Assembly (NCBI RefSeq): GCF_003334355.1
Contig: NZ_QOWP01000001.1
Length of the DNA stretch: 64,000 nucleotides
Reading direction: 5' to 3' (one strand)
DNA from: Escherichia coli
GTDB taxonomy: Bacteria > Pseudomonadota > Gammaproteobacteria > Enterobacterales > Enterobacteriaceae
Positions 31,075-37,989 of the stretch are shown here, in pieces. The first letter of the stretch is position 1. The number at the start of each line of letters is the position of its first letter. The translations under genes and the position numbers were made by a program. Below the pieces are notes generated by a model that saw only the letters and a program-made list of their open reading frames with translations, did no database searches and had not been told where the DNA came from.

Positions 31075-31559
31075 GCTCTGTCCCAGCGCCGCCTCCTCAG
31101 AAAAGAGTCGGCGCTGAAATTCTCCTTTCTTTCTGGAAAGCGCCTCGCATAATCTGAAGAAAACCAATGTAATACGCTCATCTGGATTGTTACCGGTAGA
31201 TGCCCGGCGTATAGCTGATTCCATTATTCAACGCAGCGCCATATAAAGGGACAGATAATGGAATCGCTCTCAGAGAGAACCTCAACAGGCTACCAGCAAA
31301 TCCATGACGGTATTATTCACCTGGTCGATAGCGCCCGGACGGAAACGGTACGTAGCGTTAACGCGCTGATGACCGCGACATACTGGGAAATTGGCCGACG
31401 AATTGTCGAATTTGAACAAGGTGGCGAGGCCAGGGCTGCGTATGGTGCGCAGCTAATCAAGCGACAATCAAAGGATTTAAGTCTAAGGTATAAGCGTGGG
31501 TTCTCTGCAAAAAACTTACGCCAAATGAGGCTTTTTTACCTCTTTTTTCAACATGTTGA

Positions 31560-31663
31560 AATTCGCCAGACAGTGTCTGGCGAATTAACACCATTGGGAA
31601 TTCCGCAGACACCATCTGCAGAATTCCCATCGGCAAAGATTTGGCAGACGCTGTCTGCCAAAT
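31560..31663. repeat. Three tandem palindromic units at a 39-bp period inside the yhcG remnant
   Basis: Read directly: AATTCGCCAGACAGTGTCTGGCGAATT (31560-31586), GGGAATTCCGCAGACACCATCTGCAGAATTCCC (31596-31628, imperfect), ATTTGGCAGACGCTGTCTGCCAAAT (31639-31663). Confidence 0.8.
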
Positions 31664-31697
31664 TGAGAGGCTGTTTGATATTTCCACAGCTTTTGTA

Positions 31698-31726
31698 TTG
31701 CATCTCCTATTTTCGGTTTGTATATT
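31698..31726 (+). promoter_or_regulatory. Near-consensus sigma70 promoter for the orphan ORF (TTGCAT-N17-TATATT)
   Basis: -35 TTGCAT 31698-31703, 17-nt spacer, -10 TATATT 31721-31726; AAGGA Shine-Dalgarno at 31741-31745, 8 nt before the ATG at 31754. Confidence 0.6.
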
Positions 31727-31753
31727 CATGCAAATAAACGAAGGAAAGTTGCC

Positions 31754-32059
31754 ATGATTTACATTGAACAGCTTGAATTAATCCATAAAAGTGGTGATGT
31801 GTTGTATCCAGTAAAAATAACCAGAAAATCATCAGGAAAAACTGCCTTCCACCTTGTTCCATTCGGCTTAAATAAGACTCACGACCTTCTAGAGGTGGAA
31901 GATGCTTCAGAAGCAATTCGGCTGGTGATTGATGAACGTCATTCCATTCGCTGCAGTACACTTACAGCAACTATTACGAATAAAAAGGGCAAGCGAATTA
32001 AGCGGACAGGTATATACAGTATCAAGGGTGTTAACATAAAAGAATACAACGTCAGGTAA
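31754..32059 (+). CDS. Hypothetical protein, 101 aa, no recognised family
   Basis: ORF MIYIEQLELIHKSGDVLYPVKITRKSSGKTAFHLVPFGLNK...KKGKRIKRTGIYSIKGVNIKEYNVR in an AT-rich segment with good promoter and RBS; basic C-terminal tail, no signal peptide or TM segment. Start chosen at the Met with the RBS; the track ORF begins 12 codons upstream. Confidence 0.55.
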   Translation: MIYIEQLELIHKSGDVLYPVKITRKSSGKTAFHLVPFGLNKTHDLLEVEDASEAIRLVIDERHSIRCSTLTATITNKKGKRIKRTGIYSIKGVNIKEYNVR

Positions 32060-32134: not shown

Positions 32135-33467
<1,333 letters not shown>

Positions 33468-33471
<4 letters not shown>

Positions 33472-34157
33472 AGCACCGCCTTTTTCATCGCTGTGTTGTA
33501 CCACTGACAAATGTGTTCAAGACGCGTAATGGCAGAACCGACCGTCACCGCCCACGCGCCGTGGCGCATCGCATCTGCCGCCTGAGCAGGCGTGTTGTAA
33601 CGCCCTTCGGCAATCACCCGACATCCGGCTTCGCTCAACGTTTTCACCAGCGCCAGATCCGGCTCTTCTGGCGTTTCAGGCGTGGTATAGCCAGAAAGCG
33701 TAGTGCCAATAATTTCGGCTCCCAGCTTTTGGCATGCCAGGCCGTCTTCCGGCGTTGAGCAGTCGGTCATCGCCAGTAAACCGTGATGGTGAATACGTGC
33801 CAGCAGCGTTTCAACAGGCACCGGACGCGGGCGGTCGGTGCCGTCAATGGCGATAATGTCCGCGCCCGCCTGCGCCAGCGCATCAACATCTTCAATATAG
33901 GCCGTGATGCGTACCGGAGAATCCTCCAGATCGCGTTTCACAATCCCGATAATTGGCACGCTCACCACCGCACGCGTGGCTTGCAGATTTGCCACACCTT
34001 CAATGCGAATGGCAACCGCGCCCGCCTGTTCTGCCGCTAATGCCATGGCGGCGACGATTTCGGGTTTATCGAGCGGGCTGTCCGGAACCGGCTGGCAGGA
34101 GACAATCAGGCCACCGTTAGCAGCGATTTTTTGATCCAGTTGTGCAAGTAACGACAT
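33468..34157 (-). CDS. nanE: N-acetylmannosamine-6-phosphate 2-epimerase
   Basis: Track ORF trimmed to [35 protein letters not shown]... (229 aa). Confidence 0.93.
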
Positions 34158-34204: not shown

Positions 34205-35695
34205 TTAACTTTTGGTTTTGACTAAATCGTTTTTGGCGCTGCCAAACGGCACGGCACCGCTGAATGGTTTACCGTCGATAGCGTCATGAGTACGCAACGC
34301 TTCCGGGCGCAACCAACGCTGAACGCGAGAAGGCATATCCAGCCCAATCAGCAGGATCACCACGAACGTCAGACTGAACGAGAGCGATGCCAGCGCAGTA
34401 CCCAGATCCAGACGTTGAGCGATCAACGCGCCGATGATTGGGGCCAGTGCACCGCCCAATGCGCCAACGTTGTAGGTAAAGCCCAGGCCCGCTGCACGCT
34501 GGTCGGTATCGAAATAACCGCCAATCAGTTTTGGTAAGATCCCGGCGATCCCTTGTCCAAGCATTTGCTGGAAGAACAGTAACAGACCGAGCACCCAGAC
34601 GTTTGCGCCGCCAATCGCAAATACCGGAATAATCAGCAGCTGCGAGGCCAGCAGGCTACAAACGTACGCTTTGCGGGTTCCCAGCCAGTCACCGAGGAAG
34701 CCACCTACGCAGCATCCCACCGCCGCGCCAAAGCCACTAAAGAACAGCACATTGGCTACAGTATGCGGGTTATAAGCCAGATCGGTTTTCAGATACGTTG
34801 GCAGCAGCGCCTGAATCGGCCATGAGTAGAGGAAAGCAAACAACACGACCACCATCAGCATTACGCCCGTTGGCCAGCGTTTGCCTGTACTCTGCACCAT
34901 AAAGCTGATAAAGATTGCGGCGCATAACAGCCCAAGAACAGCGACGATCGCGGCATTTTGCAGGTTACCGGCGAAGCAGAACCACAGCGCAGTAGCCGCC
35001 GCCAGTGTCATTACGATATTGGCAATGCGATGTTCACCACGGTAGAGAATATCCACCATTGTGCGTACTGGTGCTTTACCTGCGTGTTTCTCTTTCCAGT
35101 CTTCCGCTTCCGGGATGTTTTTACGCAGCCAGAGAGCAAAGATGATTGGCAAAATGCCGATAAAGAACAGCGCACGCCAGCCCCAGACCGGAACCACCAG
35201 GCTATAGACCTGAGCGGCAACGACGGCCCCCACAGAGAAGCCTGAAATCAAAAAACCACTGGCTTTGTTACGCAGATTTTTTGGCCAGCTTTCAATGACA
35301 TAGGTGGCGCTGGAACCGTATTCACCCGCCATCCCCATGCCGATGACCAGACGAGCGATAAACATGGTGATGTAGCCTGGCGCAAAGCCGCAGGCCAGCG
35401 TCCCGGCCGAGAAGAGAACGATGCTGGTGACCATTGCCAGACGACGCCCGTAGCGGTCACCCATAGCGCCGAGCATCAGGCCGCCGAACCAGCGAGAGAT
35501 AAAGGCTGCAGAGATCAGACTTGCCGCCTGCACCGTCGTCAGCCCGAATTCACCTTGTACTTCGGTGAGTACCAGGGCGATTAAAACGAAATCAAAACCG
35601 TCAAGCAGATATCCCAACCAGGCAGCGGAAAATGCGCGCCATTGTGCACGGTTGAGATGGCGATACCACGGGATATTCTGGGTTGTAGTACTCAT
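34205..35695 (-). CDS. nanT: Sialic acid:H+ symporter (MFS)
   Basis: Track ORF trimmed to [36 protein letters not shown]... (496 aa). Confidence 0.94.
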
Positions 35696-35803: not shown

Positions 35804-36697
35804 TCACCCGCGCTCTTGCATCAACTGCTGGGCCAGCGCCTTCAGTTCTGGCAGATATTTTTCATCTACCGGTCCAAACGGTTTGCGGCACAGCGGCACA
35901 GAAACGACATCCATATAATGGAGGACAGTTTTCAGGCCGCGGAATACGCCCGTTTTGATCAGTAAATCAATGACTTTATTGCATTCAGTTTGCAGTTTCT
36001 GCGCGGTCTGGATATCGCCTTCTTTCAGCGCCTTAACGATCCCCTGATAGCGCCAGCCCATGATGTTGTAGGTACTGCCGATACCACCATCAGCGCCCGC
36101 CAGCAGACCAGAGGCGAAGATTTCGTCGTAACCGTTATAGAGCACAAGATCAGGATGTTCACGACGGATCTGCTCCATCTGATAGAGATCGCCAGAGGTC
36201 TGTTTCAGCGCACCTACGCCAGGCAATGTAACAAGTGTGTTGATCTGATCCAGGGTCAGTTTTACCCCACTCAGGGCTGGAATGTTGTACACCACCATCG
36301 GCAAACCATCCGCCGAATCAATAATTGCCCGATAGTGATCGCAGTGTTCTTCAAAGCTGAAAGGATAGTAGAACGGCGTGACGGCGGAGACGGCATCGAA
36401 GCCATAACGTTTAGCCGATGCCGCAAGTTGTTGGCTTTCGGCGGTGCTGACGCAACCGACGTGGGCGATGAGTTTAATCTTACCTTTCGCCTCTTCGGCG
36501 ACGATTTCCAGTACCTGTTCACGCTCGGAAAGGCTTTGTACAAAGGCCTCGCCGGTCGAACCACCCACGTATAAACCGTCGATGCCCTGCTGAATATTGA
36601 ACTGAACCAGGCGACGCAGACTCGCTTTATCCAGTGCTTGTTGTTGGTCAAAAGGAGTCAGGAGTGCAGCCATTACGCCACGTAAATTCGTTGCCAT
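35804..36697 (-). CDS. nanA: N-acetylneuraminate lyase
   Basis: 297-aa [53 protein letters not shown]..., DapA-family aldolase. Confidence 0.96.
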
Positions 36698-36722
36698 AAA
36701 TACCTCTGAAGTGATGCTTGTC

Positions 36723-36745
36723 TGATAAACGATATACCTTTATAC
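36723..36745 (-). promoter_or_regulatory. NanR operator: three GGTATA repeats in the nanA promoter
   Basis: Minus strand reads GGTATAACAGGTATAAAGGTATA, between nanR and the nanA start; matches the remembered NanR operator. Confidence 0.8.
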
Positions 36746-36818
36746 CTGTTATACCAGATCAATTAAGCAACACCCCATACAGAAAGCTTATAATGCGATC
36801 TGCTTCACTAAAGTGGCA

Positions 36819-37610
36819 TTATTTCTTTTTGTTGGTGGTCTGACCGAAAGCGTGCCAGGTAGCAGAGACGCTGTTGAGATGCGATTGCAACGCACGATCG
36901 GCTTCGTCAGGATCATGACGGCGGATCGCATCAACGATCGCAATATGCTGTTGATAACTAACGTTGTTATGTTCGTGCAGTGCCTGATCGGTAACCGTTG
37001 GGCGTGCGGCAATAAGCCAGTCGAGCAGGGCAACGTGGATCGCCATGAAGATTGGGTTACCGGGGATCTCCGCCAGCACGCGGTGGAAATCAACGTCTGA
37101 ACGAATGAATGCCGCGTTGTTATCCAGCGACTGACTGTTGATTTCCAGTGCTTTTGCCAGCAAATCGATTTGCTCATCGGTGGCATGTTCAGCCGCATAG
37201 CGCACCAGACTGGATTCAAAGAACAGACGTAATTGTTCGAAATGGGCAATCCCACCGGGATGAGAAAGGAAATCTTTCGCCATGCCGGAAAGCTCACCGA
37301 TGATAGTGTCCGCAGAAGGACGCGAGACGCGAGCGCGTTCGCCGTTGTTTATTTGCACCAGACCTTTGCGTTTTAACGCTGCCAGCGCTTCACGCACCGA
37401 AGGACGCCCGACGTTAAAGAACGCCATCAGTTCGCGTTCAGACGGTAATTGTTCACCTTCGCCAAATTCACGACGGCGGATCATCTGTTCCAGCTCTTCT
37501 TCCACCATTTCGGAGAGTTTTTTACGCGCCAGCGGGCGGCTACGCAAGTTGCGACCAATTGCAGGTGAAGAATCTTCGGTTTGCGAATCAAATGCGTTCA
37601 TAAGGCCCAT
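36819..37610 (-). CDS. nanR: GntR/FadR-family repressor of sialic acid catabolism
   Basis: 263-aa [47 protein letters not shown]... with N-terminal wHTH. Confidence 0.94.
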
Positions 37611-37989
37611 TCTGTAAGGTCAGTGTGATTAACATCATCAGTGACATCCTATCACAGGATTGAAAGTAGGGGAAAATGGCAGGGTTTTCTCTTTGTGCCT
37701 CATCATTACCATAATTAACGGAATAATTAACTATTGCGAAAAATTAATGTAACGCAGATAAAAACATCCCGTTTGAATTATTTATAAGACTATTCACGAG
37801 CATTATGAATATTATGAATGTGTTCTTACAAAATAATCATAAGCGCATATTTTTTAATGAAAAATCACCTCACCTACAATTAAAAACACGACATCCGCAC
37901 CATAAATAGCCTTGCAAAAAATATAACATCGTTGTTTTCAATCTGCCGTTTATGGGATTGACCGTTTTCTTTTGACACGGAGTTCAACA

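Follow-up and report, generated by a model that had tools for sequence, protein, structure and literature searches.

The 23-bp minus-strand site GGTATAACAGGTATAAAGGTATA, situated between nanR and nanA, is almost certainly the NanR operator of the nanATEK-nanQ (yhcH) operon. It was located by an exact search of a 64,000-nucleotide stretch of Escherichia coli DNA (hereafter the window), and the assignment is built on its sequence, its position, its identity with the K-12 site, an intact cognate repressor and strong conservation, all of which we observed directly. The NanR operator is described as three GGTATA repeats with spacers of 2–3 nt (PMC3658417). At least two direct GGTATA hexamers (three at nanA) would be expected in such a site, and here there are three exact copies separated by 3 nt and 2 nt. 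In context, the minus strand reads TTGATCT, GGTATA, ACA, GGTATA, AA, GGTATA and then TCGTTTATC, and the site falls in the promoter region of the sialic-acid operon, immediately downstream of nanR. An earlier note on this DNA had the string, the minus strand and the location between nanR and nanA right, but it placed the site at 36723-36745. This interval is 10 nt too low, and it takes in repeat 3 and all but one base of repeat 2, with no repeat 1; the true position is given with the other features in Table 1.

Table 1 Position of the NanR operator, its elements and the surrounding genes in the window.
Feature	Position	Strand	Basis
NanR operator, (GGTATA)3 with spacers ACA and AA, GGTATAACAGGTATAAAGGTATA	36733..36755	minus	Unique match, K-12 identity, literature
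GGTATA repeat 1, promoter-proximal, 5' end of operator	36750..36755	minus	
Spacer ACA (3 nt)	36749-36747	minus	
GGTATA repeat 2	36741..36746	minus	
Spacer AA (2 nt)	36740-36739	minus	
GGTATA repeat 3, last base 36 nt upstream of nanA ATG	36733..36738	minus	
Candidate extended -10, TGgTATAAC, overlapping repeat 1	36748..36756	minus	Relaxed hexamer scan
Candidate CRP site AGTGAagcagaTCGCA, centre 36801.5	36794..36809	minus	2 mismatches to TGTGA-N6-TCACA, inferred
nanR, 263 aa, upstream ORF	36819..37610	minus	NCBIfam NanR model NF003011, PDB matches, K-12 identity
nanA, N-acetylneuraminate lyase, 297 aa, first gene of repressed operon	35804..36697	minus	571 bits, nanA equivalog
nanT, sialic acid transporter	34205..35695	minus	Profile match, RefSeq
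nanE, ManNAc-6-P 2-epimerase	33468..34157	minus	Profile match, RefSeq
nanK, ManNAc kinase	32596..33471	minus	Profile match, RefSeq
nanQ (yhcH), N-acetylneuraminate anomerase, last gene of operon	32135..32599	minus	RefSeq

The 23-mer had a single match in the 64-kb window, even when up to three mismatches were allowed, and no match in 100 dinucleotide-preserving shuffles of the window. Pairs of hexamers (GGTATA-N2-4-GGTATA) occurred at the operator only within the window, with 0 expected. Single GGTATA hexamers were common (22 in the window vs. 13.3 expected) and are therefore unremarkable; the signal lies in the tandem arrangement and not in the hexamer alone.

The operator sits inside a 121-bp gap between two minus-strand open reading frames, nanR and nanA. 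The nanR product scored 409 bits against the NCBIfam NanR model NF003011 (cutoff 260) and matched the PDB entries 6ON4, 6WFQ and 6WG7 over residues 1-263 (E = 4e-172), with FadR also among its PDB sequence matches. Since the match spans residues 1-263, the NanR of the window includes the N-terminal extension. The RefSeq annotation of identical DNA gives the same identities for nanR and nanA, and a Shine-Dalgarno sequence for nanA (AGAGG) is found at 36707-36703. An Rfam search of 36500-38100 (E <= 1) returned no RNA family and thus gave no hint that the gap contains an RNA element.

Our site is indistinguishable from its counterpart in E. coli K-12. Specifically, a 301-bp segment around it is 100% identical to MG1655, and direct comparison showed no difference from K-12 in the protein sequences of NanR and NanA, and 1–5 differing residues in each of NanT, NanE, NanK and NanQ. 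When compared with the (GGTATA)3 operator of K-12 nanA (Kalivoda et al. 2003 and 2013; Horne et al. 2021), our site was the same in every base, in both spacers and across the whole gap. Over the 5476-bp nanR-nanQ interval, 53 substitutions separate the window from K-12, but none lies in the nanR-nanA gap and none changes the NanR or NanA protein. The site is therefore identical to the operator that was footprinted experimentally in K-12. The earlier note had read the site as the triple-hexamer NanR operator of the nan operon, within an intact nan regulatory region; it had proposed an alignment with the K-12 nanA promoter as a check and had named altered hexamer spacing as what would count against it. 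The alignment (121/121 positions of the gap) and the unaltered spacers, ACA and AA as in K-12, both favour that reading, which is further supported by the identities of NanR and NanA and by published binding, and the regulatory region is intact in that gap, NanR and NanA all equal their K-12 counterparts. Overall, the window is closest to phylogroup-A-like strains (100.0% identity to PSS-12 and 99.9% to ATCC 8739 over 24 kb).

The operator and its interpretation are already known in full detail, and what we say on stoichiometry, cooperativity and induction is carried over from the literature on the identical K-12 sequence. For that sequence, NanR EMSA and footprint data have reportedly been published, as has the finding that nanA is no longer repressed in a K-12 nanR mutant; in 2003, Kalivoda et al. 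are said to have used S1 analysis to locate the nan start and to have found a NanR footprint of ~30 bp that covers the promoter. Three NanR dimers bind the operator cooperatively, and N-acetylneuraminate weakens this binding (Horne 2021; Vimr 2013). Binding has a Hill coefficient of about 2 and a KD of 20–39 nM; one GGTATA repeat alone is bound poorly, lengthening the spacers by 6 nt attenuates binding, higher-order complexes are lost when NanR lacks residues 1-32, and Neu5Ac makes NanR-DNA binding 28-fold weaker (PMC8012715). The operator is placed within the promoter region, where it blocks transcription (Horne et al., PMC8012715).

By analogy with K-12, dimers of NanR (a GntR/FadR-type regulator encoded just upstream) would load cooperatively when no sialic acid is present, one per GGTATA repeat, with the cooperativity driven by contacts between the 32-residue N-terminal extensions of the dimers. 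This assembly would occupy ~30 bp of the core nanA promoter, preventing transcription. N-acetylneuraminate would bind NanR and lock it in a conformation that binds DNA ~28-fold more weakly, upon which the operon would be induced. The winged helix-turn-helix fold, with major-groove recognition by helix alpha-3, is the same in FadR and other members of the GntR family (FadR-DNA, PDB 1HW2), and the DNA-binding domains of NanR and FadR superpose with an RMSD of 0.98 A (Horne et al.). However, a typical GntR operator is a single palindrome bound by one dimer, whereas that of NanR consists of three direct repeats occupied by three dimers via the N-terminal extension. The strain thus has an intact switch for sialic-acid catabolism, identical to that of K-12, which comprises repressor, operator and probably a CRP site and promoter. 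Irrespective of the rearrangement at its distal end, a nan operon with this switch intact is expected to stay repressed until sialic acid is supplied and to be induced by it.

With regard to the promoter, a strict consensus scan of 36600-37000 for sigma-70 elements and terminators returned nothing. The lack of a strict sigma-70 match fits an activator-dependent promoter, and it means that our placement of the promoter rests on a relaxed hexamer scan and inference. TATAAC (36753-36748) matches TATAAT at five of six positions and is preceded by TG at 36756-36755, while TATAAA (36744-36739), in repeat 2, matches equally well. Repeat 1 probably contains the -10 element TGgTATAAC, a candidate shared by all three K-12 operators and Enterobacter. 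Transcription may then start near 36741-36740, which would put the operator at ~-15 to +8. The candidate CRP site (Table 1) would lie ~61 bp upstream of this putative start, as is typical of class I promoters. Enterobacter retains both half-sites, and activation of the nan operon by CRP has been reported (PMC12562284). We note that a CRP consensus scan gave 14 matches in the window vs. 26.7 expected; the motif is not above chance and is by itself not evidence. Two further matches were seen in passing: a CRP-like sequence (TGTGATTAACATCATC) at 37624-37639, 14 nt upstream of the nanR start codon, and a perfect CRP consensus (TGTGATATGGGTCACA) at 48601-48616, which coordinate transfer from K-12 places in the argR-yhcN intergenic region.

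The earlier note had also suggested a scan for GGTATA repeats elsewhere, and in K-12 this recovered copies upstream of both nanX and nanC. The identical 23-mer is found ~410 bp upstream of nanX (yjhB), and a copy with two mismatches (GGTATAACAGGTATAAAGGTGCA) lies ~420 bp upstream of nanC, thereby reproducing the published three-operon sialoregulon. The operators of nanXY (yjhBC) and nanCMS share with the window site the block TTGATCTGGTATAACAGGTATAAAGGT, which is common to all three K-12 sites (nanA, nanX and nanC). The sites differ in two respects: the third repeat of the nanC copy reads GGTGCA where the window has GGTATA, and the nanX and nanC operators lie ~410-420 bp from their start codons, compared with 36 bp at nanA in the window. 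Neither the nanXY nor the nanCMS locus is in the window.

Of 5426 complete E. coli genomes, 5410 contain the 301-bp region. For a 43-mer with the operator at its centre, 5203 of the 5422 matching E. coli records were exact, with a median of 2 copies per genome (up to 4), a number consistent with additional NanR operators in most strains. The gap was unchanged in IAI39, the most divergent E. coli examined. In two Enterobacter genomes, the 23-mer was likewise invariant (CTGGTATAACAGGTATAAAGGTATATCGT) and in the same position between nanR and nanA, with NanR ~83% identical and the flanking bases diverged. As for natural variants that break the hexamer spacing, none was found in the one indel variant examined, E. 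coli CB6886 (L124, 151-194), in which a single T is added directly 3' of the operator (TCGTTTT vs. TCGTTT) and the hexamers and spacers are intact. A different situation was seen in E. coli EC96 (L126, NZ_CP060748.1), where an IS3-family element (1245-2506) stands in place of nanR, operator and promoter, and similarity to the window begins again just 6 nt ahead of the nanA ATG. The operon of EC96 is predicted to be without NanR control and without its native promoter.

The five-of-six matches to TATAAT in repeats 1 and 2 raise the question of whether the repeats are mainly promoter elements, i.e., redundant -10 boxes and not a repressor site. We consider this very improbable, given that the conserved unit is GGTATA including its GG, with fixed spacers of 2–3 nt, that this unit recurs at two other NanR-controlled operons of K-12, and that direct binding of NanR to the repeats has been published. 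The two roles are in any case compatible, an operator that overlaps the -10 being the expected design for a repressor. Another possibility would be that the site is bound mainly by some other regulator, such as NagC or a NarL-type protein, the heptamer of which bears a loose resemblance to the complement of GGTATA. A single GGTATA does resemble the NarL site at ompW (PMC13058942), but the same study stresses that NanR needs adjacent repeats, and our site has three of them at canonical spacing, beside nanR and identical to the K-12 operator that was bound experimentally; the chance that another regulator is the main ligand is negligible.

Tandem arrays with GGTATA also occur elsewhere, as in Pseudoalteromonas (GGTATAACT) and Shewanella (GGTATAGAA), with no NanR homologue in the 11,390 and 1,570 bases examined around them, which could suggest that the site is a short tandem repeat arisen by chance or slippage, with no regulatory role. 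Such an origin is just as hard to credit as a foreign regulator, considering that shuffled windows gave no match, that thousands of E. coli genomes, and Enterobacter with its diverged flanks, carry the site unchanged, and that it stands 36 nt upstream of nanA beside the gene for its repressor. This chance-repeat reading was already refuted by the conservation and the published binding data, and we retain the NanR operator as the reading of the site.

A degenerate scan (GGTATA-N2-3-GGTATA-N2-3-GGTATA) of the genomes of 100,044 species gave at least 120 loci. Most of the 120 matches listed fell in unrelated tandem arrays or, in AT-rich MAGs, had arisen by chance, and a NanR homologue was nearby in four of them (two Enterobacter, one Sphingomonadales MAG and one Synergistales genome). 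The Sphingomonadales MAG carries GGTATAGTGGTATAACAGGTATA (L067, 1040-1062) and a FadR-type GntR regulator 53% identical to NanR that scored above the NanR cutoff (288.8 bits). In the Synergistales genome, GGTATACTGGTATACTGGTATA (L026, 8520-8541) lies directly upstream of a NanR-like gene of the same type that scored below this cutoff (216 bits). The longest possible open reading frames encode 236 aa in Sphingomonadales and 240 aa in Synergistales, and these regulators therefore have no N-terminal extension of the E. coli type. In addition, two Hungatella MAGs carry GGTATACCGGTATACTGGTATA (L051, 6003-6024; L059, 6788-6809). In the first, the repeat occupies a 94-bp divergent gap between a NanR-like gene for a FadR-type GntR regulator and an operon with a NanA-like aldolase, and in the second the NanA-like aldolase is at the same distance from GGTATACCGGTATACTGGTATA. 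It is conceivable, though we regard it as doubtful, that the tandem GGTATA operator design predates the E. coli sialoregulon and is more widely distributed. If so, assembly of several dimers in Sphingomonadales and Synergistales would need a different mechanism, or else a single dimer binds. These repeats offer a modest lead on operator evolution, and one that concerns related loci and not the window.

The importance of the operator in the window beyond annotation is small. Nonetheless, it can serve as a clean positive control for motif-based operator calls, because tandem hexamers are highly specific at the level of one genome; single GGTATA hexamers are not specific, nor is the degenerate triple pattern at a 300-Gb scale. 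Among the arrays recovered, that of Pseudoalteromonas sp. TB64 (L004, 9135-9221) and that of Shewanella sp. KT0246 (L013, 431-490) are long and made of 9-bp units that contain GGTATA. No NanR homologue was found near them in the 11,390 and 1,570 bases examined, respectively, and both are probably unrelated microsatellite-like repeats.

The window does differ from K-12 at the junction between gltD and nanQ (about 31258-32059). The earlier note had put the regulatory region next to this variable islet, which holds for the operon but not for the operator, as ~4.7 kb lie between the operator and the islet, which borders the distal (nanQ) end of the operon. Between gltD and nanQ there are only a 5' remnant of yhcG (~31258-31662), annotated as a DUF1016 N-terminal pseudogene, and a transposase fragment of 306 bp (~31754-32059). 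In K-12, by contrast, gltF-yhcA-yhcD-yhcE::IS5-yhcF-yhcG lie between these genes, and the gltF-yhcADEF-yhcG fimbrial cluster is absent from the window. The junction seen in the window was present in 720 of 5426 complete E. coli genomes (>=80% coverage).
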